Notes under the pieces: generated by a model | What the model was told of the DNA's origin: nothing | What the model saw: the letters and a program-made list of their open reading frames with translations, nothing else | Database searches by the model: none | Translations under genes and position numbers: made by a program | Virus record (IMG/VR): IMGVR_UViG_3300032050_000035 | Direction: 5' to 3' (one strand) | Length of the DNA: 50,148 bases | Origin: a virus | Taxonomy: Duplodnaviria > Heunggongvirae > Uroviricota > Caudoviricetes | Part shown: positions 3 to 47,460 of the stretch, piece by piece | How positions within the stretch are numbered: the stretch's first letter is position 1 | Layout: every line of letters starts with the position of its first letter

Positions 3-140
3 GTAACTTTTATACAAATTGAGTCTTCTCATTTAATTCGACCAAATTTGATAGTTCAAACCATAGATGGTGTTGATTGGGTATTTGGTTCCGATGCTTT
101 TATGTTAGATAAAAATATTAACAATGATGAAAACAATTAA
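3..140 (+). CDS. 3' end of an ORF entering from the left edge (hypothetical)
   Basis: Open frame from nt 3 (VTFIQIESSHLIRPNLIVQTIDGVDWVFGSDAF...) to TAA 138-140, overlapping the next start; my translation. Confidence 0.35.
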   Translation, partial: VTFIQIESSHLIRPNLIVQTIDGVDWVFGSDAFMLDKNINNDENN

Positions 141-663
141 AACATACGAAGGTTTTTTTGACTTTTTCAAAAAGAAAAGATCTGAGGATGATAAAATCGT
201 AATGGATTATATCAAAAGATTAGAACGCCTAAAAAGTTATTTAGAAAAAGGTGGAGTTGCTCCTTATGATATAACAATTAATCTTAACGGTACTGAACCA
301 GGTGAACAATATTTTACAAGATATAGATTCCAATTTGATGATAGTCCTATAAGAATTGTTAAAGCTGAGGCTGATAGAAAATATAGACGAGGTTGGAGTG
401 AAGAAATTCAAAAACAATTTATTAACGATGATGGTGCGGTTAAGAAAAACAACAATGTATTTTATCAACTTTATATTGAGAATGCTGACGAATCGGTTAG
501 AGCTGATGTTGATCTTTTAGAAGAAATGCATGAGCTATCTGAATGGTGTTTTAAACAAAACAAAGAAAATAAAAGAATTAAAAAAATCAGAGGTAATATG
601 AATCCAGCAGCTGATTTATTAGATGATGATGTTTGGGGTAATACACCTTTAGATAAGAGATAA
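124..663 (+). CDS. Hypothetical protein with MKTIKTYEGFFDFFKKK leader (putative virion-internal protein)
   Basis: 179 aa ORF; N-terminus nearly identical to those of ORFs 3022 and 3660; start may be ATG 127. Confidence 0.8.
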   Translation: MMKTIKTYEGFFDFFKKKRSEDDKIVMDYIKRLERLKSYLEKGGVAPYDITINLNGTEPGEQYFTRYRFQFDDSPIRIVKAEADRKYRRGWSEEIQKQFINDDGAVKKNNNVFYQLYIENADESVRADVDLLEEMHELSEWCFKQNKENKRIKKIRGNMNPAADLLDDDVWGNTPLDKR

Positions 664-664
664 A

Positions 665-1027
665 CTAAATTAGTAAATCTCTTATCAATTTATCTCTCCT
701 TTTGGAAATATATCTACCATACCATTCATCATCTTCAAATTTTATAGTTGATTTTAATGTTAAGTTTATTTTATCTCCCTCAATCTCAATTTCTTTTGAA
801 TATATTTTATAAAATATTCTTTTCATTTTTATACCAAATCTACTTGAAATTTGACTATAATCAAATCTATCAGATTGACTCCAGCGAAAATCACAATCCG
901 GATCAAATTTTTTAGTCAATCGAATTAAAATTTCTACATCATCAATAAATATATCCTTATAAAATATAGGAACTTTATATTTAATATGATAAGTCTTATA
1001 ACTAACTTTATTTACCGTCAACTCCAC
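665..1027 (-). CDS. Hypothetical protein with C-terminal RDKLIRDLL motif
   Basis: 120 aa ORF, last of a minus-strand run; ends KRRDKLIRDLLI. Confidence 0.7.
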   Translation of the reverse strand: MELTVNKVSYKTYHIKYKVPIFYKDIFIDDVEILIRLTKKFDPDCDFRWSQSDRFDYSQISSRFGIKMKRIFYKIYSKEIEIEGDKINLTLKSTIKFEDDEWYGRYISKRRDKLIRDLLI

Positions 1028-1670
1028 TATCTATAGCACTTATTCTTGTTATTATATTCCACAAATCATTTATGTGTTTTCTATAAATGTCCTTTTCAAC
1101 AGGTCTTTGGTTTTCATCATACTTCTCGGCTAATTCTAACTTATGATGTATGATATCTAAGAAGTTATGAACTTTACAACCATTATGTATTGTATAATTT
1201 ATCTTTTCATCAGTTCCAATCAAGTCATAATCACAACTAAAACTATAACCTTTATAAACGCCATATGAATCATAACCTCTATAATTACCAGTATTTACAT
1301 TTATTGATAAAAAGTTTTTTTCATATACAACTTTATTTAAATTAAAAACACCACAAAACGAAATAAAGTTATCTCTACCTATAATAAAATCAAGATCATC
1401 CGGAACTCGACTAAATATATTTTGCCCTTTATATCTATAAGCCCTCAAAGCACTTGAACCAGTTAAAATAGAGTCCAGTTTCAATAAAGTATTTAAATAT
1501 TTTGCTCTCTTTGGATAAAATAATTTTTCAAAGAAATTATTGAAGTGACTAAATGGTAAATCACTTAATGTTATATTATTGTTGTTCTCTAATATTAACT
1601 TAAATTTAAGATCTCTTAAATAAGTTTTAACATCATTTAGTTTTTGTAAATCGCTCATATAAATATCCAA
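1008..1670 (-). CDS. Putative nucleotidyltransferase (Pol-beta superfamily-like)
   Basis: ILTGSSALRAY...RVPDDLDFII fits the hG[GS]...DxD NTase signature. Confidence 0.5.
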   Translation of the reverse strand: MDIYMSDLQKLNDVKTYLRDLKFKLILENNNNITLSDLPFSHFNNFFEKLFYPKRAKYLNTLLKLDSILTGSSALRAYRYKGQNIFSRVPDDLDFIIGRDNFISFCGVFNLNKVVYEKNFLSINVNTGNYRGYDSYGVYKGYSFSCDYDLIGTDEKINYTIHNGCKVHNFLDIIHHKLELAEKYDENQRPVEKDIYRKHINDLWNIITRISAIDSGVDGK

Positions 1671-2370
1671 TTATTATCCCAGTTAAAGCACCCGCAACGT
1701 GGGCTATATGTCCAATTCCATCTTTTTGGTGTCCTAATGAAATTATAAATTCATCTACAATAAAATAAAGTGGTATTAAAAAAGTCGGAAAGTTTATTTT
1801 ACCAATTTTATTGGTTATTTTCATTCCAACAAAAATACCCATTAGTCCATAAATAGAAGAAGAAGCTCCTGCTACAGTGGCTGTTAGTAAACCATCAAGA
1901 TATATTTGTAAAAAACCACCAATCGAACCACATATTAAATAAAAGATAATGAATTGTAAAGATTTCATTCTTCTTTCAATTGGTGGGCCAACTAAAAGTA
2001 ATACACACATATTATTTCTTAAATGTTCGGTACTGGCATGTATAAATTGATGTGTTATTAGTTTATCAAATGAAAACGAACCTAAACTCATTAGAAGTGG
2101 TTGAATTATTTGTGATGGTAGTAATAACTCACAATTAAATATAAAAAAGTTCATAGCAACTAAACCAATTACTATTGGAGTTATTGATCTTATACTTTTA
2201 TCGAAATTATCTACTTTTTTAGAAGTAAAGACAAATAGTGATGCGATAACAGGTGTTAATAACAAACTGATAAAGTATGTTATATTATAGCCTATCTTTC
2301 TCTTTTCACCTTCAAAACTTAATCTAACACAAAGAATTGAGTATAGAAAGGCTAATGTAAGTAAAATCAT
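1633..2370 (-). CDS. Rhomboid family intramembrane serine protease
   Basis: Multiple TM segments; HQFIHASTEHLRNNM (HxxxxHxxxN), GASS catalytic Ser, AHVAGALTG catalytic His. Confidence 0.88.
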   Translation of the reverse strand: MILLTLAFLYSILCVRLSFEGEKRKIGYNITYFISLLLTPVIASLFVFTSKKVDNFDKSIRSITPIVIGLVAMNFFIFNCELLLPSQIIQPLLMSLGSFSFDKLITHQFIHASTEHLRNNMCVLLLVGPPIERRMKSLQFIIFYLICGSIGGFLQIYLDGLLTATVAGASSSIYGLMGIFVGMKITNKIGKINFPTFLIPLYFIVDEFIISLGHQKDGIGHIAHVAGALTGIIIGYLYERFTKTK

Positions 2371-2534
2371 AAACCTCTTTCTCTATTATCAATAACTATT
2401 CTCATACAACCATGACAAACAACAACTGGTCCAGCTGGAGTCATAACTGGTTCTCTCTCACATTTAGATTCACACGGTTTTGTACCTTGTGGTGCGTAAT
2501 CTCTCAAAGATCTTCTTTTTTCTCTTTCTCTCAT
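2367..2534 (-). CDS. Small Cys-rich protein (55 aa), not in the ORF track
   Basis: My translation MREREKRRSLRDYAPQGTKPCESKCEREPVMTPAGPVVVCHGCMRIVIDNRERGL; TGA overlaps the rhomboid ATG (ATGA); promoter-like motif upstream. Confidence 0.65.
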   Translation of the reverse strand: MREREKRRSLRDYAPQGTKPCESKCEREPVMTPAGPVVVCHGCMRIVIDNRERGL

Positions 2535-2553
2535 GACTATAAGTTTTATTTTA

Positions 2554-2561
2554 CAAATATA
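2554..2561 (-). promoter_or_regulatory. Bacteroidota-type sigma-A -7 element (TATATTTG)
   Basis: Matches TAnnTTTG about 20 nt upstream of the 2534 start. Confidence 0.5.
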
Positions 2562-2599
2562 CGAATTTAATATATACGATAGAAAAAAAATATAATAAT

Positions 2600-3022
2600 A
2601 TGAAATACTTAAAGAAGTTTAATGAGAGTTTTGGTAGAACATTATTTGAGGACTTTGGTTCTAAAGACATTATTGATGATATAAAGAGTATATCATACAT
2701 ATTAGAAGATAAAGGATATGAATTAGGTGTTTATGAGTTTTCTCTTCATACGAATTGGGAAGATGTAATAACTATTAAAATAGAACTTTGGACTGAACAA
2801 TATGTAACTGGAGTTGGTGCTTTTACTGATAGCAGTCATGAAAATCTTATGAAAAAAGTGGAGTCTGATATTGATAACTACAAAACTCTTCTAATGGAAC
2901 ATTTAGACTATATACCATCAGATAAATTTCATGTAGGTAAAATAACTCATAGAATTGGGTCTCAAGTTTCATTTTCTAAAGAGAGTGTTCGTTTTGAATG
3001 TAAAATAAAAATAGATTTGTAA
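2600..3022 (+). CDS. Hypothetical protein with MKYLKKFNE leader
   Basis: 140 aa ORF; shares DIKSISYILEDKGY and EHLDYIPSD blocks with ORF 21373..22215. Confidence 0.8.
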   Translation: MKYLKKFNESFGRTLFEDFGSKDIIDDIKSISYILEDKGYELGVYEFSLHTNWEDVITIKIELWTEQYVTGVGAFTDSSHENLMKKVESDIDNYKTLLMEHLDYIPSDKFHVGKITHRIGSQVSFSKESVRFECKIKIDL

Positions 3023-3657
3023 TGAAAAATATTAAAACATATGAAGGTTTCTTTGACTTTTTTAAAAAGAAAAATAAAGAAGTAAGTAACGAACCTGTTT
3101 ATTTAGATGATATAAAAGAATGTCTTTATGATATAACAGAAGATACTAGATTTGATAATTCCTTAGATGGTACAATTGATGGAGTCTTCAACACTTATCG
3201 TGATGTTTTTAAAATTAAGAGTAATCTAAGTTTAGATTCTGATTATGAACAATTGGGTAATGATATAGAAGGATTACCTGAATATGTTAAAGATAATATG
3301 ATGGCTGTTAGAATTAGATATAAGAGAGAAGAAGAAGATGATAGATATTCGGGAGTAGATAAAGTTGGTGTATTAGATGATGATTTTAAGAGATTATTGG
3401 AAATTTGTGAATCCAAATTAAAAACATATAATTGTGAAGTTTCTTATTATGTTTGTATTGGTAATACACACTTAGTGAATGGTGCTAGTTGTATTCCGGA
3501 TGAGTTTAAATCAATTGATAAGTTATTTTATTTTTTACAAAATAGGAGAGAAATTTTAGGATCAGCTCGTCGTGATTCATCCGGTACTACATTTTTCATT
3601 CGAGGATCAATAAACTTAACTATGAAAATAACATCACCTTCAAAAATAATAGTATAA
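3022..3657 (+). CDS. Hypothetical protein with MKNIKTYEGFF leader; paralog of 3660..4178
   Basis: Shared EPVYLxDIKECLYDITED, KDNMxAVR, KRLLEICxSKLxTYxC, MKITxPSKIIV. Confidence 0.85.
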   Translation: MKNIKTYEGFFDFFKKKNKEVSNEPVYLDDIKECLYDITEDTRFDNSLDGTIDGVFNTYRDVFKIKSNLSLDSDYEQLGNDIEGLPEYVKDNMMAVRIRYKREEEDDRYSGVDKVGVLDDDFKRLLEICESKLKTYNCEVSYYVCIGNTHLVNGASCIPDEFKSIDKLFYFLQNRREILGSARRDSSGTTFFIRGSINLTMKITSPSKIIV

Positions 3658-3659
3658 AT

Positions 3660-4178
3660 ATGAAAAATATAAAAACATATGAAGGTTTCTTTGACTTCTT
3701 AAAAAAGAAAAAAAATTTAGAACCGGTGTATTTAGAGGATATAAAAGAATGTCTTTATGATATAACAGAAGATGAACCAAGAATTAAAAACTCTTTAGAT
3801 GGAAATGTTGATGGTATATTTAAAAGTTATGATGAGATATTTGGTATTAAAAATGGAAGAAGTATTGAATATTATGGGTCAATGGATCATATTAAAGATA
3901 ATATGATAGCGGTTAGACTTACTTATAATCTAAATGAAATTAGTAATGAAGAAGTTAAAAGATTATTAGAAATATGTTCTTCTAAATTAAGAACATATGA
4001 TTGTGTAGCAACTTTTTATTTATCATATGGTAGAGATGAAGGTAGAACAGATGATAAAGAATATAAATCAGTTGATAAATTATTCAATGCAATAAATAAA
4101 TATTACAGCTGGTCTGTTAGACAAAGAAATCCTAATATCGCAATGAAAATAACAGCACCTTCAAAAATAATAGTATAG
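3660..4178 (+). CDS. Hypothetical protein with MKNIKTYEGFF leader; paralog of 3022..3657
   Basis: Same conserved blocks as the upstream ORF; tandem arrangement. Confidence 0.85.
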   Translation: MKNIKTYEGFFDFLKKKKNLEPVYLEDIKECLYDITEDEPRIKNSLDGNVDGIFKSYDEIFGIKNGRSIEYYGSMDHIKDNMIAVRLTYNLNEISNEEVKRLLEICSSKLRTYDCVATFYLSYGRDEGRTDDKEYKSVDKLFNAINKYYSWSVRQRNPNIAMKITAPSKIIV

Positions 4179-4210
4179 TAAACCTAAATTACTTTTTTAA
4201 TATAATTATC

Positions 4211-5062: not shown

Positions 5063-5063
5063 A

Positions 5064-6769: not shown

Positions 6770-6824
6770 AGAGTTATATATACAAAATCTTTTTTTTGTT
6801 TTCTATTTTTTTATATATAGAGTT

Positions 6825-7691
6825 ATGAAAAGAGTTAAAAATTATAACGAGTTTGTTAATGAAGGTATCTTCTTTAAGAAAGATGAATACTTGAGAGCTG
6901 AGTTAAATAAATTATATAATACTGATGAGAATAAAGTTAGATTACAAGAAATCATTAGTACTTTCAAGAATTTAAATAAATTACAATTAATTCATAAATT
7001 AAAAAGTTTAGGTTATTCAGAATATTTAATCGATGACAAGAAACTTTATAAAGAGTTTGAAAAGTTTAAAAAAACTGGTGAACCATTTGGTTTAGAAAAG
7101 TTATTATTAGGTGATGAGATACAAAGACAAATTGTTCTTTCCAAAAGAGGTCAGTTAAGTAGATACTTAATGGAACATGGTGAAGAATTCACTTTTGGTA
7201 TGTTAAGAGCTATTTTCAAAGATGCTAAAGACGCTAAAATCTTAATGGATACTAAAACAGCTTTTTATCAAGCACTTCCAAGAGCTATTCCTACAATCAT
7301 AGCACCTTTTTATCCAATTTTAGCAATTGTTGGTTTGGTTTTAGGAACATCCAGAACATTTAATAAGTTTTTGAAACCACTTTTTAAACATATTGATTCG
7401 GAATCTAAATATGTTGATTTCTTAAAGACGATGGTTAATTACTATATGAAAGTTCCGGAAGGTGATGTAAATGTAAAAGATCGTTTTTCGAGAGCTTTTG
7501 TTGTTACTGATAGATTAATAGATGCTGTTAAACCAGAAGTTATACAAGATTTTACAAATAAATTAATTATAAAAATGGATTCTGAACCGGATGATAAGCC
7601 GGTGCCAGATCACTATATTGAAAATCAATTGAAGACTTATCTGAATGATAATTTTGATGTTGATCCAGAAATACCATTAAAAATAGAATAA
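6825..7691 (+). CDS. Hypothetical protein with MKRVKNYNEFVNE leader and one hydrophobic segment
   Basis: 288 aa ORF; IPTIIAPFYPILAIVGLVLG hydrophobic stretch. Confidence 0.8.
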   Translation: MKRVKNYNEFVNEGIFFKKDEYLRAELNKLYNTDENKVRLQEIISTFKNLNKLQLIHKLKSLGYSEYLIDDKKLYKEFEKFKKTGEPFGLEKLLLGDEIQRQIVLSKRGQLSRYLMEHGEEFTFGMLRAIFKDAKDAKILMDTKTAFYQALPRAIPTIIAPFYPILAIVGLVLGTSRTFNKFLKPLFKHIDSESKYVDFLKTMVNYYMKVPEGDVNVKDRFSRAFVVTDRLIDAVKPEVIQDFTNKLIIKMDSEPDDKPVPDHYIENQLKTYLNDNFDVDPEIPLKIE

Positions 7692-7693
7692 TT

Positions 7694-8058
7694 ATGAAAT
7701 ATTTAAAGGGATATAATGAATCAATAAGGTTGTATGATTTGCAAGTCTTCAAAGGGAGAAAGAGAAATTATAAAACTTTTGAATAATTTAAATGTAAATT
7801 ATATACATCAAAAAAAAATTCAAAGATTGTAAATATTTATCAAATTTAATTTTTGATTTTTACTTACCAGATTATGATATTTGTATAGAGTATAATGGCG
7901 CACAGCATTATGAACCATTTGATTATTTTGGTGGAAAAGAATCTTTTGAATTAGTAGTTAAAAGAGATAAAATTAAAAAAAACTTTTGTAGAAAAAATAA
8001 TATTAAGTTATTTACAATATCATATAAAAAAAATATAGAAAAAGAGATAAAAAAATAA
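7694..8058 (+). pseudogene. Chimeric remnant: MKYLKGYNES leader joined to a frameshifted Vsr/DUF559-like endonuclease C-terminus
   Basis: 7694-7786 encodes a 30 aa peptide; 7728 onward reads GCMICKSSKGEREII...HQKK, then after a 9-A run (7810-7818) FKDCK...FDFYLPDYDICIEYNGAQHYEPFDYFGG...RDKIK...NNIKL to TAA 8058. Confidence 0.7.
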
Positions 8059-8065
8059 TAGAGAA

Positions 8066-11743: not shown

Positions 11744-11744
11744 T

Positions 11745-19929: not shown

Positions 19930-21336
19930 TTAAATCCTCCTAATTCCAGGCACAAACCCATATTTAAAGTTTTTCTTTGCCCATTCATAATCATCTTTAT
20001 TCAATGGATTATCATCGTTGCAACTTCCAGCCCAATAATAACCTTTTACTTCTTTAGGACCTTCTTTTAATGATTTTATCCTATTTCTATCACAATTAAA
20101 ATTACCTCCTATTGATCTTGGTGATCCTTCTAAAGAAGTTAATATATTAAATGAACAATCAAAACTACCACTAACTTTTCCAAATTTAAGAGGAATTTTT
20201 TTCAAACCATTATTACTAATATTTACCGTTCCATCAACATCAACTGTTCCATCTGAGTTAATTTTATAATTCTTAATACCGAGTTCTGAACAAATTCCAT
20301 CAATACCAAGATCTTTTTCATCTAAATCAACAACATATTTATCTTCCTGATCATTATAAACTCTATTATTTAGACAGAAAGTTCCAATTGACTTATTAAA
20401 ATATTCATTTAATATATTATCAACCGTTTTTTTAAATTCACTTCTATTAACACCATACATATGTTTACTCGTATATAAATTAGTTATATCACGATCTAAA
20501 CCATCCTCGATGTATAATCCCTCTTCTTCATATTTTCTCTCCATTTCAGGACTTATTTCTTTATGAGTAGCTACAACTTTACCTGATCTATCTTTAACAG
20601 TATAAAGAGTAGGATGGTATGGTTTTATATTCAAAACACCCAATGGGTTATTAATGTTTTTATCATTTTTATTTATCAAATAAGATATTAGTGATCCTTC
20701 TTGAACTTCTTTAATTAAATACTTGACATTAACACCATCACTTTTATATTTCATTATCTTATCGTTAATTTCTCTTATTTTCTTATCATCATTAGATTTC
20801 TTAGCACTTTCTAATTCATCCATTAATTTAGTTAAACGATTAGATTTATCTGTTCCAATTGTCATACAATTTGTCCAATTTCTATCTGTATCGGATCCAG
20901 TAATATCATATGGGTGTCTTGATATAACAACTAAAAGATCTTCTTTTGAAGTAGATGTTAAGGCTTTTCTTTTCTCATCCTCGACAAACTTTTTATTTAA
21001 ATCTTCATTTTTAAATCTAGTTAACAACTTACCAATTGTGGTTTCGTTTTTAGAATTATTAAACTTAGCACTTCCTTTAACATAATCAACAATCTGACAA
21101 TCATTTTCTTTTAGAAATTTATCAATCTCTTCATGAATTTTTGAGACATATCCTTTTATTTCCTCTTTAACTAAAGGTATATAAATACGATAGTAATTTT
21201 TATCATGCTCATACTTATCACCAAGTTTCTTAAAAATATCTAAATATCTTTCCCTATCAAATTCTTTAACATATTCCCTAAATTGACTAGGTTTTAAAGC
21301 TTCGTTAAAATTTTTAAAACTATTTAAATGTTTCAT
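19930..21336 (-). CDS. Leader-bearing protein with C-terminal LRR-like repeats
   Basis: MKHLNSFKNFNE leader; VVISRHPYDI...WTNCM core; VSGSFDCSFNILTSLEGSPRSIGGNFNCDRNRIKSLKEGP repeats. Confidence 0.8.
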   Translation of the reverse strand: MKHLNSFKNFNEALKPSQFREYVKEFDRERYLDIFKKLGDKYEHDKNYYRIYIPLVKEEIKGYVSKIHEEIDKFLKENDCQIVDYVKGSAKFNNSKNETTIGKLLTRFKNEDLNKKFVEDEKRKALTSTSKEDLLVVISRHPYDITGSDTDRNWTNCMTIGTDKSNRLTKLMDELESAKKSNDDKKIREINDKIMKYKSDGVNVKYLIKEVQEGSLISYLINKNDKNINNPLGVLNIKPYHPTLYTVKDRSGKVVATHKEISPEMERKYEEEGLYIEDGLDRDITNLYTSKHMYGVNRSEFKKTVDNILNEYFNKSIGTFCLNNRVYNDQEDKYVVDLDEKDLGIDGICSELGIKNYKINSDGTVDVDGTVNISNNGLKKIPLKFGKVSGSFDCSFNILTSLEGSPRSIGGNFNCDRNRIKSLKEGPKEVKGYYWAGSCNDDNPLNKDDYEWAKKNFKYGFVPGIRRI

Positions 21337-21372
21337 ATTTTTATTTTTTTTTTATATTTTTATTTTTTTATA

Positions 21373-22215
21373 TTATAAACTAATTATAACTTTTTCACCT
21401 TCAGCTACTATATTTTCACTTGGTATATAATCTAAATGATCTCTTAAAAGATCAACAAATCTATCTAAGAATTCTTTAGATGCATCTTTTATATTTATTG
21501 AAATTCCAGATGTGTAAAGTTTATTATCTAATTCCAAACTTCCAAATAATTTAACTGAATTAAATAAAAGAAATGTATTATAACTAAAAGAATATCCTTC
21601 ATCTTCAATAAGATATGATATTGTGTTAATATCTTTTAATAAATCTTTAATTTCTTCATTATTTTTTTTGATATCCTCTTCACTTTTACCATCATTTATG
21701 TATTCTGATAATGAGAATAATTTATTTAAAAATTTACATTCTTTTTCATAATCATCTTTATCGATAACTTTCCATATATCCGAATTAGTTTCTACATATC
21801 CATTTGATTTCAAAAATCCATGTATAAAAGTCTTAATTTCATTATCATAACCTTTGAATTTATTACAATTAACATCTCGACCCATCTGTATGTCACTTCT
21901 AGTTGTGATTTTTCTCCTAATTTTACTTCTAAGTGTGTTTCTATCAAGTCCTCTGTTATTTATCTCATTCAAAAGTTGATCCATAAGTTCACTCAACTGA
22001 TTGAATGATGCTAATATTATTTTTGTGTATTGTTCATTAGTAAGATTTCTTCCTATATACTTACACTCATGTGTTATATCACTTACTCTAGGATCCCCAA
22101 TGGTCCAGTATTTATTGCTCTCACCTGCGTAATTAGCGCTAGTCAATTGAACTAAGAACTTATCGCTTATTACTGTTAAATCAGTTGCCTCATTAAAATT
22201 TTTTAAATATTTCAT
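21373..22215 (-). CDS. Hypothetical protein with MKYLKNFNE leader
   Basis: 280 aa; C-terminal domain similar to ORF 2600..3022. Confidence 0.8.
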   Translation of the reverse strand: MKYLKNFNEATDLTVISDKFLVQLTSANYAGESNKYWTIGDPRVSDITHECKYIGRNLTNEQYTKIILASFNQLSELMDQLLNEINNRGLDRNTLRSKIRRKITTRSDIQMGRDVNCNKFKGYDNEIKTFIHGFLKSNGYVETNSDIWKVIDKDDYEKECKFLNKLFSLSEYINDGKSEEDIKKNNEEIKDLLKDINTISYLIEDEGYSFSYNTFLLFNSVKLFGSLELDNKLYTSGISINIKDASKEFLDRFVDLLRDHLDYIPSENIVAEGEKVIISL

Positions 22216-22225
22216 ATTTTACTCT

Positions 22226-23188
22226 TTATTTCTTATAAAATTCTTCTATTTTATCAACTCTTATTAATAATACATTAGAGTCAGTCCAAATTTCATGTCC
22301 TGGAGTTGGTTCTTTTAAATCATAAATTTTTTCATCATCATTATATGTATTCCCTCTATATTCATATGATGGTAAATTTCCAAATGATTTTTTATATTCT
22401 AAATAACTCATTTTCTTAATACCCATAGATTCTGGTGAGAATAAAGTATTTAGAACATCAATAGTTAAAGGTTTTTTTGGATTTTCCGAGAAAACCCAAC
22501 TATCACCGGATGTATCAACTTTACTACAAAATTCTAAAACATCTTCCCAATCTTCAATGGAATCAGCAGCTCGATTGGTCGATGACCTCATCCATGATTC
22601 GAAATCAATAGGATCATCCGGATACATTAATTCATCTTTTGATTTTGGAATCCTTATAATATTCAGTTTTGATATATTATTAATATCAATATTTTGATTT
22701 ATTTTATTACCTATCAAAACATTTAATAATTTTGAAAACTCATGAGTCAACTCGACATTGTGCATATCAAAATTAGGAACTATTCCCCAATTAGATCCAT
22801 TAAAAGGGATAACCCTATATAAGTTATTTCTATATTCCATAAAAGTTCTCATTGAAGTTGAGCATATTAATTGTCTTTTTGGATAAGAACTCCAAGAGTT
22901 TAAATGATTTATAAGAGGAGTGTGTAGATAATTTTTACCAGAAACTCCTTGCATACTTTTTCTATAAGTAACACCATCATGTTTATATGAATTCCTAGGA
23001 CTCCAATATGATGAATTTACATAAAGATATGAATCATTAGATGAAATTGATCTGTATATGGGTCTATCTTCCCATTTAAAATCAGAACATTTTTCTTTTA
23101 AAATTCTTTCGAATTCTTCTTTAGTTAAACTTTTATTTTCATTTAAATTGAAATTTTCATAAAGTTTCAAATATTTTAAATATCTCAT
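22226..23188 (-). CDS. Leader-bearing protein, possible ADP-ribosyltransferase-like fold
   Basis: MRYLKYLKLYENF leader; PIYRS, LICSTS, HEIW in R-S-E order. Confidence 0.5.
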   Translation of the reverse strand: MRYLKYLKLYENFNLNENKSLTKEEFERILKEKCSDFKWEDRPIYRSISSNDSYLYVNSSYWSPRNSYKHDGVTYRKSMQGVSGKNYLHTPLINHLNSWSSYPKRQLICSTSMRTFMEYRNNLYRVIPFNGSNWGIVPNFDMHNVELTHEFSKLLNVLIGNKINQNIDINNISKLNIIRIPKSKDELMYPDDPIDFESWMRSSTNRAADSIEDWEDVLEFCSKVDTSGDSWVFSENPKKPLTIDVLNTLFSPESMGIKKMSYLEYKKSFGNLPSYEYRGNTYNDDEKIYDLKEPTPGHEIWTDSNVLLIRVDKIEEFYKK

Positions 23189-23219
23189 ATTAAAATTTTA
23201 TTTTTATATATATTTTTTT

Positions 23220-23576
23220 TCATTTATAAAATGAATAACTTGCTGAAGTTATTTTTTCTTCACCTTCATCCGTATCAGTACCAATCTCAAAATATGATAA
23301 TTGGTATCCGTTAGATTTCATATGACCAATTACTGATTTCATATGATAGTAAACCTTCTCTAAGTCTTTAAAATCATTAATAGGTATAATGATTTGAAAA
23401 TCATTTTTATCAAAATCGTCTATCTCATTATTATCAATAATATCTTGCATTGTTATTTCATCACCATCACCATGTAAATATATATCATAATGATCCATTA
23501 GATCTTGTAAATAATCAACTAAATCAATTAGCTGAAACTCTTCTGAACTTTCGTTAAATTTTTTTAAATGTTTCAT
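23220..23576 (-). CDS. Acidic hypothetical protein with MKHLKKFNE leader
   Basis: 118 aa ORF. Confidence 0.8.
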   Translation of the reverse strand: MKHLKKFNESSEEFQLIDLVDYLQDLMDHYDIYLHGDGDEITMQDIIDNNEIDDFDKNDFQIIIPINDFKDLEKVYYHMKSVIGHMKSNGYQLSYFEIGTDTDEGEEKITSASYSFYK

Positions 23577-23968
23577 AATTTATTTAATTTTATATTTATT
23601 TCCAAACTCGGTGATTTTGTTAATGTCTTTTTTATTTCATATTCTGGGTATTCATCTAATAATCTATTAATACTACTATCAACTCTTTGTGATATTTTTA
23701 ACCAATTTTCAAAAAACTCAGTTATCTCAGTATCATTACTATTATATTGACTTGGGTTATAATACCATTGATTAAATGGTTTGTCTATATCAAAACCAAT
23801 TGAACTTTTCAACCAAGTTGATATAACTAATCGATAATTAACACTCTTTTTATATGAATATTCACATCTGAAATTATCATCTTCTATTACTTCTCTGAAA
23901 CAACTTTCGATATACTCAATATCCAATTCGTTTTCACTACTTTCATTAAATTTCTTTAAATATTTCAT
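23573..23968 (-). CDS. Hypothetical protein with MKYLKKFNE leader
   Basis: 131 aa ORF, first of five consecutive leader-bearing genes. Confidence 0.8.
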   Translation of the reverse strand: MKYLKKFNESSENELDIEYIESCFREVIEDDNFRCEYSYKKSVNYRLVISTWLKSSIGFDIDKPFNQWYYNPSQYNSNDTEITEFFENWLKISQRVDSSINRLLDEYPEYEIKKTLTKSPSLEINIKLNKL

Positions 23969-24029
23969 AATTCTATATATTAATTCTCACTATTCAAAAT
24001 TAATTTCCTATATTTGTAAAAAGTATTTT

Positions 24030-24440: not shown

Positions 24441-24472
24441 TTTGGTGATTTAGAATAAACTTATTATATTTG
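24441..24472 (+). promoter_or_regulatory. Bacteroidota-type sigma-A promoter (-33 TTTG, -7 TATATTTG)
   Basis: TTTG 24441-24444, 20-nt spacer, TATATTTG 24465-24472. Confidence 0.7.
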
Positions 24473-24496
24473 TTAAACAAATAAAAAATAGAAACA

Positions 24497-33637: not shown

Positions 33638-34729
33638 TTATTGTTCTGGTGTAATTATTTTATCAATTTCAGCTACTTTATCTTTGTTTTCTTCTTTACT
33701 TATGAAATCAACATAACTAGCAACTTTCTTAATATCATCTGGTTTTTTAGCTTTCAACTCACCTAATTTTTTAACTAAGTCTTCTTGTCCTTGAGCTTTA
33801 GCCTCTTCAAATTTATAAGAGTCAACTTCTTCACCTTTTTCGTTAACAATTCTTTCTAAGGCTCCAGTTTCGTATTCTTTCATCGGATCTGGTTGACCTT
33901 TTCTTAAAATCTCGGTTAATTTAACTTTGTCTCCTTTTTTAACTTCACCAGCAATTTTTGCTAAAACTTCTTCTCCTTCATCGACTACTAATTTTTTACT
34001 ACCAGATTTAACAACTTGTATATATCCTGGATGTTTAGTTAATAAATCACCTGTTAATTTCTTAATTTCAATTTCAACATCACCCCAATCTAAAACAATG
34101 TTACCACCTTCAGATTCTTCACCACCTTCAATTTTCTTTTCTTCTTTATATTTTTTGATTTGTTCATCAATATACTTGTCATCAGTAACTTTCTTTTTGA
34201 AGTCATCAACAATTGCTTTAATCTCAGCTACACGAGCAGCTTTCTTACCAGCTAAATCTTTAGCCGCTGCCACTTTTTTATCAAACTCCATTTTAAGTTC
34301 TGCCGCTTTTTGTTTAACCATACCTAACATTACACGACCAGCAATCATACCATCTTTGATAGCACCTTCGAGAATTAAATTAACATTAGACTCTTTAACA
34401 GCTTGAATTTCTTTATCAATCTCAACACATTTTTCGTCAAATTCTTTATGAAATTGATCTATTATTTGATTAAGTATTCCTTCGTCTTCAGCTTTGTTTA
34501 TATTGTCTGTTGTGGTTTTTAAAAGACTATCCAACATAGTAGTTAGTTTTTTCTTTAACTCTTCTCTTTTTAATCCTTTTTTGAAATCATCTTTTAGTGA
34601 TTTAAAAGGAGCTGCTATACCACTTAAAAAGTTTTTAAATGCTCCTTTAGCAGCCGCTAATAAAGAACCTAAAAACTCCTCATTTATTTGACTATCTTTA
34701 AATTGTTGATAATTGTTAATTCTCTTCAT
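33638..34729 (-). CDS. Lys/Glu/Ala-rich coiled-coil protein with MKRINNYQQF...INEE leader (putative virion protein)
   Basis: 363 aa ORF; ATATATA motif upstream. Confidence 0.8.
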   Translation of the reverse strand: MKRINNYQQFKDSQINEEFLGSLLAAAKGAFKNFLSGIAAPFKSLKDDFKKGLKREELKKKLTTMLDSLLKTTTDNINKAEDEGILNQIIDQFHKEFDEKCVEIDKEIQAVKESNVNLILEGAIKDGMIAGRVMLGMVKQKAAELKMEFDKKVAAAKDLAGKKAARVAEIKAIVDDFKKKVTDDKYIDEQIKKYKEEKKIEGGEESEGGNIVLDWGDVEIEIKKLTGDLLTKHPGYIQVVKSGSKKLVVDEGEEVLAKIAGEVKKGDKVKLTEILRKGQPDPMKEYETGALERIVNEKGEEVDSYKFEEAKAQGQEDLVKKLGELKAKKPDDIKKVASYVDFISKEENKDKVAEIDKIITPEQ

Positions 34730-34792
34730 AATAAATTTTTTGTTTTATAAACTATATATAAAATTCCACATATAAAAAATAAAATTTTTATC

Positions 34793-43267: not shown

Positions 43268-43342
43268 GTTATATATATTATTTAATAAAAATGGAAATTT
43301 GACGGAAGCTCAACTTATTTATAATTATTTCATATAATTGAT

Positions 43343-43528
43343 ATGAATGAGGATGATTTAAAATATAAAACACCTGAAAAGATAGAAGAATATCATAAAG
43401 TTATTCAGAAATTAAAAGAAGCTCATGATATTTTTAGTAAGTGTCTTGATGGTAAAAATCGTAGAGGTATCTTAACTGATATCTCAAATACGATTTATAG
43501 AATAAAAAGAGAATATCTAAATGATTAA
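43343..43528 (+). CDS. Small hypothetical protein
   Basis: 61 aa ORF overlapping the DHFR start. Confidence 0.65.
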   Translation: MNEDDLKYKTPEKIEEYHKVIQKLKEAHDIFSKCLDGKNRRGILTDISNTIYRIKREYLND

Positions 43529-43988
43529 GATTATTGTAGCAATGTCAAGAAATAGGGTTATTGGTAATGCCAATACCCTAATCTGGCATTTACCAGAAGA
43601 TTTAAAAAGATTTAAAGAATTAACTACCGGTAACACAATAGTAATGGGTAGAAAAACTTACGAATCAATTGGAAGACCTTTGCCTAATAGAAGAAGTATT
43701 ATCATAACAAGAGATACTAACTATCAAGTAGAAGGTTGTGAAGTTGTAAACTCTTTAGAAGAAGCTTTACTTTTATCAAATAATGATTGCTTTATTATAG
43801 GTGGTGGTGAGATTTATAGACAAGCTTTAGATAAAGCTGATAGAATATACTTAACACTTATAGAAAAAAACTTTGAAGGTGATACAACATTTCCTGAAAT
43901 AAAAGATTGGTACGAATCAAACTGTGAGAATTTCAGTAATGAGCAGTTTAACTATTCATTTATACAATATGAGAGATTCGCATTTTAA
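43521..43988 (+). CDS. folA: Dihydrofolate reductase
   Basis: VIGNANTLIWHLPEDLKRFK, VMGRKTYESIGRPLPNR, IIGGGEIY, FEGDTTFP. Confidence 0.96.
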   Translation: MIKIIVAMSRNRVIGNANTLIWHLPEDLKRFKELTTGNTIVMGRKTYESIGRPLPNRRSIIITRDTNYQVEGCEVVNSLEEALLLSNNDCFIIGGGEIYRQALDKADRIYLTLIEKNFEGDTTFPEIKDWYESNCENFSNEQFNYSFIQYERFAF

Positions 43989-44235
43989 TGAGTTTATACT
44001 TTTTATACAATCTATTGGATTTGTCTATGATAAGTATTCTTTCAATAAAGAATATTATTTATTAGATCAGTATGAAATATATGTAACTATTAGTGGAATC
44101 TACTGTTTAACTGAGAAAGTACAACAAGGAGTTACTAGAACACTAACTACTGGTGCTGTTCAACATTTCAAAAATGATTTAAACTCATTTCGAAGTATAG
44201 TTAGAAATAAGAAACTAAAAGATTTGGGAATATGA
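43924..44235 (+). CDS. Hypothetical protein with C-terminal RNKKLKDL motif
   Basis: ORF ending SIVRNKKLKDLGI; the true start is probably the internal MRDSH. Confidence 0.65.
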   Translation: MRISVMSSLTIHLYNMRDSHFNEFILFIQSIGFVYDKYSFNKEYYLLDQYEIYVTISGIYCLTEKVQQGVTRTLTTGAVQHFKNDLNSFRSIVRNKKLKDLGI

Positions 44236-44273
44236 AAAAAAAACCTACTTTGATTAAAGAGTAGGTTTTTTTT
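44235..44273 (+). terminator. Intrinsic terminator
   Basis: AAAAAAAAACCTACT-TTGATTAAAG-AGTAGGTTTTTTT. Confidence 0.75.
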
Positions 44274-44275
44274 AT

Positions 44276-44283
44276 TATATTTG
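44276..44283 (+). promoter_or_regulatory. Bacteroidota-type -7 element (TATATTTG) upstream of lemA
   Basis: Matches TAnnTTTG 26 nt upstream of the ATG. Confidence 0.55.
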
Positions 44284-44309
44284 TATAAATAATTTTAAAA
44301 ATAGTATAA

Positions 44310-44915
44310 ATGAAAGCAGTAAATGATTTTTTGAAAGCTTACAAAGGATTGATTTTCCTTGTAGTATTAGCATTAGTTGGTCTTAATGGTTGTTCGTCTT
44401 ACAACACAATGGCTAAAATGAATGTAGATGTTGACGCTAAGTGGTCACAAGTTGAAAACGTTTATCAACGAAGATCTGACTTAATTCCAGCATTAGTTGA
44501 AACTGTTAAAGGTTACGCTAAACATGAGAAAGGAACATTAACAGATGTTATCTCAGCAAGAGCGAAAGCAACATCAATCAACATTGACGCATCTAAATTA
44601 GACGCAAATACTTTACAAAAGTTTGAACAAGCACAAGGTGGTTTAACACAAGCACTATCTAAATTGATGGTTGTATCAGAAAAATATCCTGAATTAAAAT
44701 CAGATAAACACTTTACTGAATTAATGACTGAGTTATCTGGAACTGAAAACCGAATTACTATTGAACGTATGAGGTTTAATGAATCGGTACAGTCTTATAA
44801 TGAGAAAATTGTGGTGATGCCACGTAAACTATGGGCTAACGCATTCGGTTTCAACACAAGAGCGTTCTTCAAGGCTGATAAAGGAGCCAACAAAGCACCA
44901 AAATTTAAGTTCTAA
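44310..44915 (+). CDS. lemA: LemA family protein
   Basis: N-terminal TM, WSQVENVYQRRSDLIPALVETVKGYAKHE, EKYPELKSD, ELSGTENRI, YNEKI. Confidence 0.93.
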   Translation: MKAVNDFLKAYKGLIFLVVLALVGLNGCSSYNTMAKMNVDVDAKWSQVENVYQRRSDLIPALVETVKGYAKHEKGTLTDVISARAKATSINIDASKLDANTLQKFEQAQGGLTQALSKLMVVSEKYPELKSDKHFTELMTELSGTENRITIERMRFNESVQSYNEKIVVMPRKLWANAFGFNTRAFFKADKGANKAPKFKF

Positions 44916-44918
44916 TAT

Positions 44919-44941
44919 AGGGGGTTTATCCCCCTTTTTTC
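44919..44941 (+). terminator. Intrinsic terminator or attenuator between lemA and the TPM gene
   Basis: AGGGGG-TTTAT-CCCCCTTTTTTT. Confidence 0.75.
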
Positions 44942-44973
44942 CTTATATTAGCATATATAAATCAAATTAAATT

Positions 44974-46704
44974 ATGAGAGTATTATTTTTATTACTGTTG
45001 TTAGTACCAACAATTTTGTTTGGTGGTATAACACCAACTGGATTTGTAAATGATTACGCAAATCTTTTAACTACTGAACAAGTTTCTCAATTAGAAAGTA
45101 AAGTTTCTGATTTTGAAAAGAAAACTGACATCGAAATCGCTGTTGCTATTGTTACTTCATTAGATGGTAATGATATAGACACGTATAAAAACTCACTTTT
45201 CAGACAATGGGGAGTTGGTAAAGCCGGTAGAAACAATGGTTTATTAGTTGTTATCTCACCTAATGATAGAAAATGGGGTATTGAGATTGGTTATGGTTTA
45301 GAACCATATTTAACTGACTATACTTCATATGATATGGCTGAAACTCACTTAGTTCCTAATTTCAAAGCAGGTAACTATTACCAAGGTTTAGACGAGTTAA
45401 TTTCAGTAATGACTAAACACTTAGGTACTTCTACTTGGAAAGATAGAGTTGCTTATACTAAAGCTCAAAAAGAAAAAGAACAAAGAGAACACGAAGAAAG
45501 TGTTAGAACTTTCTTTCAAGTCCTTTTATGGATTGTTGCTATAATTGGTTTAACCATTGCGTTTTTCTTTTTCAAAAGAAAACAAGAACGTGAGAAAGCG
45601 TTTAAGAAAAATCGTGAAGATAAAGCAAATAACTATAAAACAAAAGTATCCGAAGTTTCATCAGAACTTTATAAGTTAAGAGGTGAAAGTATTGAACTTG
45701 ATAAGAATATGGTTAATTTAATCAAATCTTCAACAGTTGAAAATCTTAATACAAATTATAATGTAGCTCTTGACTCTATTAGACCACAAGTTACATTAAT
45801 TAATACTATTAATAATATTAATGATAGTGTGTTCACTGCTATATCATTATTGAATGATATTACTAAACTTGAGAAAAAACATAATATTGAAAGTGGTAAT
45901 AAATTAGATTTTGATTTCAATCCTAAATCTGATATTCAAGAATTGGAAAACAGATTATATATTATAGATGGTATTAAATCTACATTTGAAACTAGAAAAA
46001 ATAAGTTAGAAAGATTTGACAACTTAGTATCATTACATCCACAAAGTTTGGTGAATGATATCGAAAGTTATAAATCAGAGTTTACTAATAAGTTTTATAA
46101 ACCAAGTAACAATGATTTGATCTCATTAGTTGAAAGATTGAATGACTCTATTAATGTTTTCAACCGTGTGGATGTTAGTTTTGGTAATCTATATAATTTA
46201 GAAAAATCACACAATGATATTAAAAAGTGTAAACAAGATATATCTAATCACTTAGATATCATTAGAAGTAGAAATACTGAACACGAGAAAATGGTTAGTG
46301 TGTTAAATGGATCAACTCAAAACTTATCATCAGTATCTTCTAAATTGAATAGTTATTTGAACAATAGCGATGTAAATAGTAGTACAAAAACAGCTATCAG
46401 AAGTATCTTACCTACTTTATTAGCATTCTCTGTTACATCAAACATACTTGACTCATTCAATAATTATAACTCACTTGTTTCAAAAGCAAACTCTTTACTT
46501 AAAAAGGCTAAGAGTGAAGTAGAAGAAGCTGAAGAAGATAGAGCAAGAGAAAGACGTAGATTAGCAGCAGCCGCGGCAGCCGCAGCTTCAAGTTACTCAA
46601 GCTCAAGTTCGAGTTCATCTTGGGGTTCATCTGATAGTGATTCATCTTGGGGTGGATTTGGAGGTGGTGACTCTGGTGGTGGTGGTTCATCAGGTGATTG
46701 GTAA
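44974..46704 (+). CDS. TPM-domain membrane protein with a long coiled coil and a Gly/Ser tail
   Basis: Signal peptide; VNDYANLL, WGVGKAGRNNGLL, IEIGYGLEPYLTD; TM helix; ends SSSSSWG...FGGGDSGGGGSSGDW. Confidence 0.88.
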   Translation: MRVLFLLLLLVPTILFGGITPTGFVNDYANLLTTEQVSQLESKVSDFEKKTDIEIAVAIVTSLDGNDIDTYKNSLFRQWGVGKAGRNNGLLVVISPNDRKWGIEIGYGLEPYLTDYTSYDMAETHLVPNFKAGNYYQGLDELISVMTKHLGTSTWKDRVAYTKAQKEKEQREHEESVRTFFQVLLWIVAIIGLTIAFFFFKRKQEREKAFKKNREDKANNYKTKVSEVSSELYKLRGESIELDKNMVNLIKSSTVENLNTNYNVALDSIRPQVTLINTINNINDSVFTAISLLNDITKLEKKHNIESGNKLDFDFNPKSDIQELENRLYIIDGIKSTFETRKNKLERFDNLVSLHPQSLVNDIESYKSEFTNKFYKPSNNDLISLVERLNDSINVFNRVDVSFGNLYNLEKSHNDIKKCKQDISNHLDIIRSRNTEHEKMVSVLNGSTQNLSSVSSKLNSYLNNSDVNSSTKTAIRSILPTLLAFSVTSNILDSFNNYNSLVSKANSLLKKAKSEVEEAEEDRARERRRLAAAAAAAASSYSSSSSSSSWGSSDSDSSWGGFGGGDSGGGGSSGDW

Positions 46705-46706
46705 AA

Positions 46707-46800
46707 TAAAAAGTCACGATTTCTCGTGACTTTTTTTATTTCTATAAAAAAGAAACCCAGAAATTTCTTTCTGGGTCAGTCTAAGAATACTCTTCTTAGA
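46707..46800. terminator. Back-to-back terminators plus an extra hairpin
   Basis: AAGTCACGA-TTTC-TCGTGACTTTTTT; ACCCAGAAA-TTTC-TTTCTGGGT (U-tract on the minus strand); TCTAAGA...TCTTAGA. Confidence 0.75.
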
Positions 46801-46809
46801 GTGGTAAAT

Positions 46810-47460
46810 TTATTTAGATAATAATTTAATTAAATCTTCTGTAATTTTAGTTATAAGTTTTTTACCATCAACTTCAACTGGAGTAATTCCTTTAATCATT
46901 GAGTATTTGTCATTACCATCTACATTTAATTTAGAGATAGCTTCACAAATTGTATTATTTCCTTTATATTTTGCTAAATAATAAGTTTTTAAGTCTCCTA
47001 CAAATTTAGATAAATCAACACCTTCATTATAGTTATACTTAACCATTTGTAATTCGTTCTCATCTTTTTCGATCATTAAATACCAAATAGATTTTTTAGA
47101 AATCTTAACATTTTCTAAAAAATTATAAGCTCTAGATGCTTTAACATTTTTAGGGAATTTAGCAACCTTACCAATAGTTTCAACCTTTTCGTTTTTATTA
47201 TCTTCAAAATCAATATCATTTACAAATTCATCATTGTCTGTATTAACATCAATATTTTGATCTTTTGGTATAACATTCTTTCTTGAAGCAACTCTTTCAC
47301 CTTTTTTAGTATCTTTTGGTAAATTAGGGTTCATTGGTAAAGATGAATCTGTATCAGGCATAATGTTTTCAGAAGGATTTACTTCTTCTAATTTATCACT
47401 CTTACTTTCATTTTTAAAGTCTGAAAACTTTTTAAATAATCTTTTTGAATTATCCGCCAT
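46810..47460 (-). CDS. Hypothetical protein with near-N-terminal FKKFSDFKNE motif (putative virion protein)
   Basis: Start reassigned from 47556 to ATG 47460; the intervening sequence is AT-rich and carries the TAATATATA motif. Confidence 0.75.
   Translation of the reverse strand: MADNSKRLFKKFSDFKNESKSDKLEEVNPSENIMPDTDSSLPMNPNLPKDTKKGERVASRKNVIPKDQNIDVNTDNDEFVNDIDFEDNKNEKVETIGKVAKFPKNVKASRAYNFLENVKISKKSIWYLMIEKDENELQMVKYNYNEGVDLSKFVGDLKTYYLAKYKGNNTICEAISKLNVDGNDKYSMIKGITPVEVDGKKLITKITEDLIKLLSK

Follow-up and report, generated by a model that had tools for sequence, protein, structure and literature searches.

A shared, lineage-specific N-terminal leader probably marks a very large packaged protein set in an AT-rich megaphage

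Why do so many otherwise unrelated proteins of one phage begin with almost the same few residues? The question is raised by IMG/VR record IMGVR_UViG_3300032050_000035, a stretch of 50,148 nucleotides from a virus of the Caudoviricetes, which as a whole is called the window here. A first-pass annotation had listed about 12 open reading frames (ORFs) in it whose products share a short N-terminal leader, had likened this leader to the capsid-targeting sequence (CTS) of phage T4, and had proposed that it loads a large, diverse cargo into the head. Mullaney and Black are said to have described the T4 CTS on the internal proteins IPI, IPII and IPIII in 1996. The CTS is the only part that the T4 internal proteins have in common; it brings them into the scaffolding core and is removed by gp21 (PMC3012670, PMC5694885). 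The present study shows that the leader in the window is a real, highly non-random, detachable and lineage-specific tag. We consider it likely that this tag directs proteins into the virion through the head-assembly pathway, as a propeptide of the T4 CTS type that serves a great many proteins. Relatives of two of the tagged proteins are proven components of the virion in cultured jumbo phages, and the packaged set that the tag marks is therefore probably very large.

A greedy search for the longest ORFs served to call genes and gave 63 genes in the window and 953 ORFs in LR756502.1, the closest complete relative. A strict form of the leader, M[KR].[LIV][KN].[FY] with a Glu a few residues on, opens 11 of the 63 window genes. 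A count against shuffled ORFs had been set beforehand as a check: over 2000 shuffles of residues 2 to 30 of every protein, the mean was 0.045 and the maximum 2. At internal Met residues of the window the pattern is absent (0 of 238). A profile hidden Markov model built on the leaders of LR756502.1 scores the same 11 genes at 11.8 to 22.8 bits. Their start codons lie at 127, 2600, 3022, 3660 and 6825 on the plus strand and at 21336, 22215, 23188, 23576, 23968 and 34729 on the minus strand, and these positions serve below as names of the proteins. A slash in the sequences follows the last residue of the leader.

127 to 663, plus strand: leader gene, 178 residues from the second Met (the ORF opens at 124); MKTIKTYE, then GFFDFFKKK; 13.7 bits.
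2600 to 3022, plus strand: leader gene, 140 residues; MKYLKKFNE/S; 18.3 bits; body homologous to the C-terminal domain of 21373 to 22215.
3022 to 3657, plus strand: leader gene, 211 residues; MKNIKTYE/G; 18.4 bits; paralogue of 3660 to 4178.
3660 to 4178, plus strand: leader gene, 172 residues; MKNIKTYE/G; 18.4 bits; paralogue of 3022 to 3657.
6825 to 7691, plus strand: leader gene, 288 residues; MKRVKNYNEFVNE/G; 17.6 bits; hydrophobic segment inside.
19930 to 21336, minus strand: leader gene, 468 residues; MKHLNSFKNFNE/ALKPSQFR; PcfJ-like N-terminal part and C-terminal leucine-rich repeats.
21373 to 22215, minus strand: leader gene, 280 residues; MKYLKNFNE/A; 18.1 bits; C-terminal domain in common with 2600 to 3022.
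22226 to 23188, minus strand: leader gene, 320 residues; MRYLKYLKLYE/N; member of a large phage-only family.
23220 to 23576, minus strand: leader gene, 118 residues; MKHLKKFNE/S; 22.8 bits.
23573 to 23968, minus strand: leader gene, 131 residues; MKYLKKFNE/S; 22.5 bits; first of a five-gene minus-strand block.
33638 to 34729, minus strand: leader gene, 363 residues; long leader MKRINNYQQFKDSQINE/EF; 11.8 bits; body charged and helical.

Behind the leader, the bodies are mostly unrelated by BLASTP, as the first-pass annotation had it, with two exceptions. The bodies of 3022 and 3660 are 40% identical, and the C-terminus of 22215 shares a domain with the body of 2600 (35% identity, E 1e-9). The start MKTIKTYE-GFFDFFKKK of 127 is common to 3022 and 3660, the rest of its body being different; 3022 and 3660 themselves also have identical-looking C-terminal ends, MKIT[SA]PSKIIV, and a common extended leader, MKNIKTYEGFFDF[FL]KKK. 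A Pfam scan of ten leader proteins gave no matches, and PHROGs gave marginal matches for two, none of them usable. Five of the genes do stand in one consecutive minus-strand block (19930 to 23968), for which a megablast search against cultured phages found no match. Every start that had been listed at first exists, and 11 are solid members of the set; those at 47460 and 7694 drop out and are described with the other features below.

The window has a G+C content of ~27% over its 50 kb and is densely coded under translation table 11, 91% of it lying under ORFs of at least 80 codons, with TAA as the main stop. An alternative genetic code was considered and is unneeded given this coverage, TAG also serving as a stop. 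The gene content includes split T4-type topoisomerase II subunits, a helicase-methyltransferase and a TPM-domain protein. The source of the window is an AT-rich megaphage. LR756502.1, an uncultured phage of 642,428 bp that shares 73% identity with the window in the large topoisomerase subunit, was pieced together from 33 overlapping stretches and served as the complete reference of the clade; the statistics on the head module and on promoter-like motifs given below derive from it rather than from the window's own genome. By the same subunit, the next cultured relatives are RsoM2USA and XacN1, at ~42% identity.

How far does the tag extend over a whole genome? A simple leader pattern opens 102 of the 953 ORFs of LR756502.1, and the leader profile reaches at least 8 bits at 149 of the 953 N-termini against 2 of 754 internal control segments. 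These 149 proteins make up 25,571 of the 199,291 coded residues, and the tagged genes sit in tandem arrays. The scale of the set thus exceeds what had been proposed from the window, coming to ~15% of genes in the complete relative. The consensus reads M-K-[HY]-[LI]-K-x-[YF], then N-E, E-x-F or K-[IL]-F-E, and the first Glu falls at residue 8 to 13 in 88 of 95 leaders. In these 88, the residue after the Glu (P1') is Ser in 38 and one of Ser, Asn, Asp, Glu, Ala or Gly in 77, and the residue at P3 is Phe, Tyr, Leu or Ile in 71, aromatic more often than in T4.

Is it the peptide that is conserved, or the nucleic acid that encodes it? The conserved start might be an mRNA-level translation element, serving nearly leaderless late transcripts in a Bacteroidota-type host without Shine-Dalgarno sequences, the peptide itself being irrelevant. 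Such an element would fit with the promoter-like motif that stands only ~7 nt from many tagged start codons, so that transcripts may be almost leaderless, with the lack of a visible Shine-Dalgarno sequence and with the AT-rich leader codons. However, synonymous use in leader codons 2 to 11 is that of other N-termini (AAA 0.75 vs 0.71, TAT 0.74 vs 0.73, GAA 0.67 vs 0.72), so that the synonymous sites are as free as elsewhere. The substitutions that the leader tolerates (L/I/V, F/Y, K/R) are conservative at the protein level and fall at first or second codon positions. Furthermore, recognisable tail and baseplate genes, whose upstream motif and its spacing are the same, have no leader. On these three grounds we reject the translation element and hold it to be extremely improbable. 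Selection acts on the leader peptide and not on the nucleic acid.

The leader is also separable from what follows it. The domain that 2600 and 22215 have in common stands directly behind the leader in the former and 180 residues behind it in the latter. An AlphaFold2 model of 23188 (90-row alignment) has a predicted local distance difference test score (pLDDT) of 84.7 and a predicted template-modelling score of 0.84, leader residues 1 to 11 having a pLDDT below 50; the leader is thus predicted to be disordered and outside the fold. For 21336, which is also recorded on a contig of ~172 kb, 484 homologues were found, in which the body begins at a conserved EALKPSQFR. The pieces ahead of it are MKHLNSFKNFN- in this clade and otherwise MKNIIHKILLQ-, MKKFIITEEDKKHILSLYNID-, MKKTL.LTESELKKVI.KMVN- or none, and every leader type joins the body by hydrophobic-x-E/A.

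In two fetched contigs with other leader types, neighbouring unrelated genes reuse each lineage's own leader. Four genes of L041, an 18-kb ENA metagenome contig, start M[KG]KF[IL]ITE..., and several more start MK.IITES... or MKK.IRLTE.DL...; the fuller forms that recur there on many small genes are M[KG]KF[IL]ITE.[DE]K.[HN]I..[LM]Y, MKK.IRLTE.DL..[IL]VKRV and MK.IITES. On small genes of the 50-kb contig L039 the recurrent leader is MKN[LI]I.KIL.E. Judged from sequence, recurrent N-terminal leaders reach beyond one clade. Many members of the 23188 family outside the megaphages start M[KR]...[FY][LI].E/GRS. Because homologous bodies in the 21336 and 23188 families carry lineage-specific leaders, the leader follows the phage lineage and not the cargo.

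These observations bear on another explanation, in which the leader is the last conserved remnant of a single fast-diverging, duplicated superfamily of paralogues and has no signalling role. The clear paralogy of 3022 and 3660 and the tandem arrays of tagged genes are what such a history would leave behind. However, one body family bears different leaders across lineages and none in some, the leader lies outside the modelled fold, and one domain occurs at two distances from it. Besides, conservation across ~150 proteins would not persist without selection. We therefore regard a mere remnant as very improbable.

Do tagged proteins reach the virion? RsoM2USA (344 kb) and Atu_ph07 (490 kb) are cultured jumbo phages with published virion proteomes, and both encode a Peptidase_S77 above the Pfam cut-off. 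The 21336 protein matches RsoM2USA ORF132 (tblastn E 4e-26), whose mass is computed as 76.62 kDa (published value 76.64) and whose first residues are MKTFKQFLNTLME/ALPLS. The abundant bands of purified virions were assigned to ten proteins, two of which are ORF132 and ORF89 (28.56 kDa; PMC8504454). ORF89 starts MKTFKQFLSE/S, and ORF132 likewise starts MKTFKQFL; a start of the form MKTFK.FL occurs in 3 of 479 RsoM2USA ORFs, two of the three being virion proteins (~1e-3 by a rough hypergeometric estimate).

The same window protein matches Atu_ph07 gp394 (tblastn E 8e-33), which starts MQYTDLIE/ALKPS and was detected in virions by 18 unique peptides at 41% coverage (PMC6102473 Table S5). The mass of gp394, 55.10 kDa, agrees exactly with that table, and its neighbour gp393 matches at 11.30 kDa. 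A profile of the 23188 family matches Atu_ph07 gp53-64 and gp408 with E values down to 2e-60, all of them in the published virion proteome, and also three tandem RsoM2USA genes that start MTFKAFLQE, MTTFKEYLTE and MKLEDLFE. For a wider comparison, 140 proteins were read from Table S5 (131 by the paper's own criteria) and mapped to ORFs by molecular weight and gene order. A pattern written with the virion list in view, M[RKQ][WLYF].[QDENH][LI].[ED], matches 19 ORFs, of which 18 encode virion proteins; of the other 791 ORFs, 113 do (Fisher p = 3e-14). The rule taken beforehand from T4, an [LI]-x-E that ends at residue 6 to 12, holds for 25% of Atu_ph07 virion ORFs against 10% of the others (p = 9e-6), and the three control patterns [LI]-x-D, [LI]-x-K and [AG]-x-E do not separate virion from other ORFs. 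When all LR756502.1 proteins were compared with Atu_ph07 by BLASTP, three leader proteins found matches, one in the virion list and two outside it, a comparison without power.

Thus Atu_ph07 (gp53-64, gp381, gp394, gp408 and others) and RsoM2USA (ORF89, ORF132) share with the megaphage the homologous 21336 and 23188 cargo families, a T4-type protease and a short N-terminal leader ending [LI]-x-E, and these proteins are detected in virions. They differ in having leaders of their own, MRW.QLTE in Atu_ph07 and MKTFKQFL in RsoM2USA, and far fewer tagged genes (~19 and ~3-6, respectively); the published papers do not call these leaders a tag. In Atu_ph07 (MF403008.1, 39484 to 50592, gp53-63) a tandem array encodes ~11 paralogous 30-kDa virion proteins that all start M[RK]W.QL[TN]E; they are listed as hypothetical virion proteins, and the shared start goes unremarked (PMC6102473). 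Full-text literature searches found no paper linking megaphages, or T4-like jumbo phages of the Rak2/Atu_ph07/XacN1 type, with a capsid-targeting sequence. What our study adds is the link from two window cargo families to published virion proteomes, the codon test and the lineage-specific swap of leaders.

The proteomes also speak to the idea that a cytoplasmic protease or adaptor, perhaps of the ClpP type, reads the leader as an N-terminal degron or regulatory tag, which would time the destruction of numerous small late proteins independently of packaging. Some tagged proteins do look like cytoplasmic enzymes, namely the lysozyme and the RnlA-like ligase of LR756502.1 described below. However, virions purified from two cultured phages stably contain homologous families with equivalent leaders, the type of leader varies with the phage lineage together with the head module, and no link to Clp recognition motifs was found. 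A degron appears quite improbable to us.

Is T4-type head machinery present in the clade? LR756502.1 has a T4-type head module at ~222 to 231 kb. Its portal matches PHROG 213 (E 4e-59), its capsid protein is gp23-like, and a fusion of protease and scaffold (225272 to 227371, 699 residues) matches PHROG 207 "head maturation protease" (E 4.8e-28). Against Pfam PF03420 (Peptidase_S77) the protease gives E 1.8e-5, which is below the cut-off; several of its close homologues carry a precomputed PF03420 match. BLASTP against T4 gp21 gives E 5e-6, with GEFDHP and VSSRAAG aligned to T4 GELNHP and VSSRGLG. Public data contain 1,523 homologues of the protease domain, with which a phmmer search against PDB sequences found no match. 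In the best 120 of these 1,523 homologues, the scaffold part carries 10 to 13 tandem 14-residue repeats, N-I-A-Y-S-E-Y-[IL]-A-E-N-L-D-K. Behind the repeats, whose number varies among close relatives, come an acidic stretch of low complexity and a C-terminal domain that is conserved. The head module also holds a second peptidase, a 458-residue protein (229975 to 231351; PHROG 4191 "peptidase", E 3e-64) encoded ~800 nt downstream of the major capsid gene with one small ORF between. Co-folding of the protease-scaffold (residues 1 to 470, 36-row alignment) with the 23220 to 23576 protein gave a score of 0.00, which, obtained without controls, counts neither way.

Read from NC_000866, the T4 leaders are MKTFKEF...ITE/A for ipI and MKTYQEFIAE/A for ipII and ipIII, and gp22 starts MLKEQLIAE/A. 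A common ...[FY]-I-A-E motif runs through the T4 leader, the start of the T4 scaffold and the megaphage scaffold repeat, and the repeat segment Y-S-E-Y-[IL]-A-E/N is close to T4 Y-Q-E-F-I-A-E/A. The megaphage leader can be laid over ipI to ipIII in the same register, with M1, K2, a hydrophobic residue at 4, K or Q at 5, F or Y at 7, the Glu and a small residue after it (MKTFKEF... and MKTYQEFIAE/A in T4, MKYLKKFNE/S and MKHLK.YKIFE/S in the megaphage). In both systems a tag of 10 to 20 N-terminal residues stands on otherwise unrelated, fast-evolving proteins, ends hydrophobic-x-Glu before a small residue, and goes together with a gp21-family protease, a scaffold and a gp23-type capsid protein. 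The likeness to the T4 CTS that had first been noticed is therefore borne out in so far as the tag is real, portable, selected as a peptide, in the T4 register and found in a clade with T4-type head machinery.

The two systems also differ. The megaphage leader is basic, with position 3 occupied by His or Tyr and P3 by Tyr, Phe, Leu or Ile, and comes in three length variants; it stands on ~15% of genes (~150 proteins in the 642-kb relative) against three to five in T4, and the protease forms one polypeptide with a repeat scaffold. In T4, both cleavage and packaging are demonstrated; for the megaphage clade we infer them, as we do the binding to a scaffold core, the cut after Glu, the place inside the head and the injection for the phage studied here. 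The giant phages phiKZ, 201phi2-1 and SPN3US also have many head and ejection proteins with propeptides that are cut after Glu by the prohead protease and are thought to target the prohead (PMC5694885). Those propeptides are mostly 80 to 160 residues long, unshared and marked by (S/A/G)-x-E, in contrast to the short, shared and T4-like megaphage tag.

Could the leader instead be a virion-assembly or late-protein tag for tail, whisker or baseplate, or a means of recruiting a chaperone, whether or not it is cleaved? The Atu_ph07 and RsoM2USA proteomes are silent on where in the particle the tagged proteins sit, and Atu_ph07 has a complex, whiskered morphology (PMC6102473), both of which leave room for such a role. 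In contrast, sheath, gp25, gp5 and large fibre-like proteins lack the leader despite the same promoter motif, and the form of the leader and its hydrophobic-x-Glu junction fit substrates of a gp21-type head protease, which acts inside the prohead. We consider a tag for parts other than the head unlikely.

When are the tagged genes expressed? The motif [AT]ATATATA is strongly position-specific in LR756502.1, with a peak ~15 nt before the start codon and a second one at ~-30. It precedes 55 of 102 leader genes against 185 of 851 others (p = 5e-11) and, where the upstream gap is at least 30 nt, 32 of 37 leader genes against 150 of 401 others; 85 of the 102 leader genes lie in same-strand runs whose first gene has it. 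The motif also stands ahead of the terminase, sheath, portal, gp25, gp5, protease and capsid genes. The Bacteroidota host-type motif TAnnTTTG is depleted at leader genes and precedes uvsW. The leader genes would thus appear to be expressed late, at head assembly. The window genes with the motif are 2600, 6825, 23188, 23968 and 34729, most of the other leader genes following in the same runs, and the region upstream of 127 lies mostly beyond the window edge.

2569 to 2576, plus strand: late-type promoter-like motif AATATATA, ahead of the gene run 2600-3022-3660.
6812 to 6819, plus strand: late-type promoter-like motif TATATATA, beginning 13 nt upstream of the 6825 start codon.
23974 to 23981, minus strand: late-type promoter-like motif AATATATA, beginning 13 nt upstream of the 23968 start codon and heading the five-gene block.
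23205 to 23214, minus strand: late-type promoter-like motif, ahead of the 23188 start codon.
34753 to 34760, minus strand: late-type promoter-like motif, ahead of the 34729 start codon.

Two promoter-like classes can be told apart in the upstream regions of the window: TAnnTTTG, seen as TATATTTG, ahead of small non-leader genes, and [AT]ATATATA, 8 to 35 nt ahead of leader and other genes. Examples are the regions 2535 to 2560 (for the minus-strand gene 2367 to 2534), 23985 to 24029, 24470 to 24496 and 44270 to 44309. Leader genes often stand back to back with TAnnTTTG genes across divergent intergenic regions.

Taken together, the shared N-terminus would be a short, unstructured, portable propeptide of the T4 capsid-targeting type, usually with Ser after the Glu. 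Cargo expressed late would assemble together with the scaffolding core of the prohead by means of the tag, and the gp21-family protease, fused to its scaffold of EY[IL]AE repeats, would probably remove the tag after the conserved Glu. The mature cargo would stay in the head with the DNA and presumably be delivered to the next host.

Several points weigh against this scheme. At the putative site, P3 is often occupied by Tyr, Phe or Thr, as against Leu or Ile in the T4 consensus, and the leader, basic and aromatic, is unlike the scaffold repeat. The head module is seen only in a relative whose topoisomerase is 73% identical. The 8-mer count of the promoter-like motif in the window equals chance (28 observed, 31 expected in shuffles), so that only its position relative to start codons in LR756502.1 carries weight. 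The Atu_ph07 pattern was fitted after the fact, with products assigned to ORFs by mass and gene order; the RsoM2USA assignments are limited to the ten strongest gel bands, and virion proteomes do not separate head contents from other parts of the virion. The leader-bearing lysozyme and near-leader RnlA-type ligase of LR756502.1 could act in the cytoplasm and not in the capsid. Finally, tagging of ~15% of genes is far above any characterised phage. Atu_ph07 nevertheless has 131 virion proteins among ~714 annotated features (PMC6102473), which makes a very large packaged set plausible in a still larger phage.

What might the tagged proteins do? T4 Alt is an ADP-ribosyltransferase that is packaged in the head, injected, and has a cleaved N-terminal propeptide. 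The 23188 family has conserved positions R46, R76, S78, W99, P-K-R105, P128, D141 and E299. Foldseek with the model found nothing at E 0.001 or better in the PDB, and only unnamed proteins among the AlphaFold DB clusters. The best row in VIA-align is the rifampin ADP-ribosyltransferase Arr (Z 4.6, root-mean-square deviation 3.6 A, 88 aligned), which is below the reliable level; many weaker rows at Z 2.5 to 3.4, likewise below that level, are further ADP-ribosyltransferases, among them DarT, PARPs, CteC, scabin and diphtheria toxin, mixed with cyclic-nucleotide-binding domains. The family resembles Alt in its conserved Arg, Ser and Glu, in weak fold matches that are mostly to ADP-ribosyltransferases, and, as proposed, in being an enzyme that is packaged and has a short leader. 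It is unlike Alt in sequence, no similarity being seen, and the fold match does not reach any reliable threshold. That 23188 is a packaged ADP-ribosyltransferase like Alt is possible, to be taken as a lead and not as a finding.

The PcfJ-like N-terminal part and leucine-rich repeats of the 21336 family, and a DUF2441 assignment for 23188, come from Atlas look-ups and are likewise offered as leads only. The C-terminal 120 residues of 21336 (19930 to 21336, minus strand) look like phage-type leucine-rich repeats (G.F.C..N.L.SLEG.P) behind the PcfJ-like region, and several homologues carry a precomputed IF3_N (PF05198) match. In LR756502.1, a T4-lysozyme homologue (489926 to 490687, minus strand) has the leader and then a ~100-residue extension with a hydrophobic segment resembling those of the signal-arrest-release type. 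Adjoining it, an RnlA-type RNA ligase (491690 to 492961, plus strand) has a near-leader that forms a 22-residue N-terminal extension relative to T4 RnlA. These two could be packaged enzymes, or they could be a sign of a broader role of the tag.

Two further starts in the initial list are not intact members.

7694 to 7786, plus strand: truncated 30-residue ORF with the start MKYLKGYNES and a stop at 7786, followed by a frameshifted endonuclease-like pseudogene at 7734 to 8065.
46810 to 47460, minus strand: non-member listed earlier, start MADNSKRLFKKFSDFKNES, 5.0 bits; the relative's orthologue starts MADK.

The ORF at 47460 had been counted as a looser member; its start, MADNSKRLFKKF, reaches a low profile score, and the non-leader start of its orthologue is kept in the relative. 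The truncated ORF is probably the remnant of a leader gene. It belongs to a stretch of 374 nt in the window without a called gene (7692 to 8065), in which the 30-codon leader ORF is accompanied by endonuclease-like pieces in two other frames, SKGEREIIKLL... and ...IEYNGAQHYEPFDYFGG..., the latter resembling the C-terminal part of a 238-residue LR756502.1 protein (E 8e-8). The stretch looks like a leader gene broken by a mobile endonuclease gene that has since decayed. An ORF at 44310 that fits the loose pattern was rejected as a member, its start being a lipoprotein signal peptide.

Does the logic hold beyond this clade? We see about an even chance that every phage whose head is built with a gp21-family protease, be it T4, a jumbo phage or a megaphage, uses CTS-type leaders as a general address code specific to its lineage. 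The same logic fits the published virion proteomes of two cultured jumbo phages and is testable on existing mass-spectrometry data. If such a code holds, the packaged and injected proteome of uncultured giant phages could be read from sequence alone, and the megaphage clade would devote ~13 to 15% of its coding capacity (~150 proteins, including a large family resembling ADP-ribosyltransferases) to co-delivered proteins. If the tag works as in T4, this packaged set would be an order of magnitude above that of any studied phage and would probably include anti-defence and takeover factors. The leaders would also offer a natural toolbox of lineage-specific packaging tags, and would sort hundreds of orphan megaphage genes into those whose products are packaged and those whose products are not.

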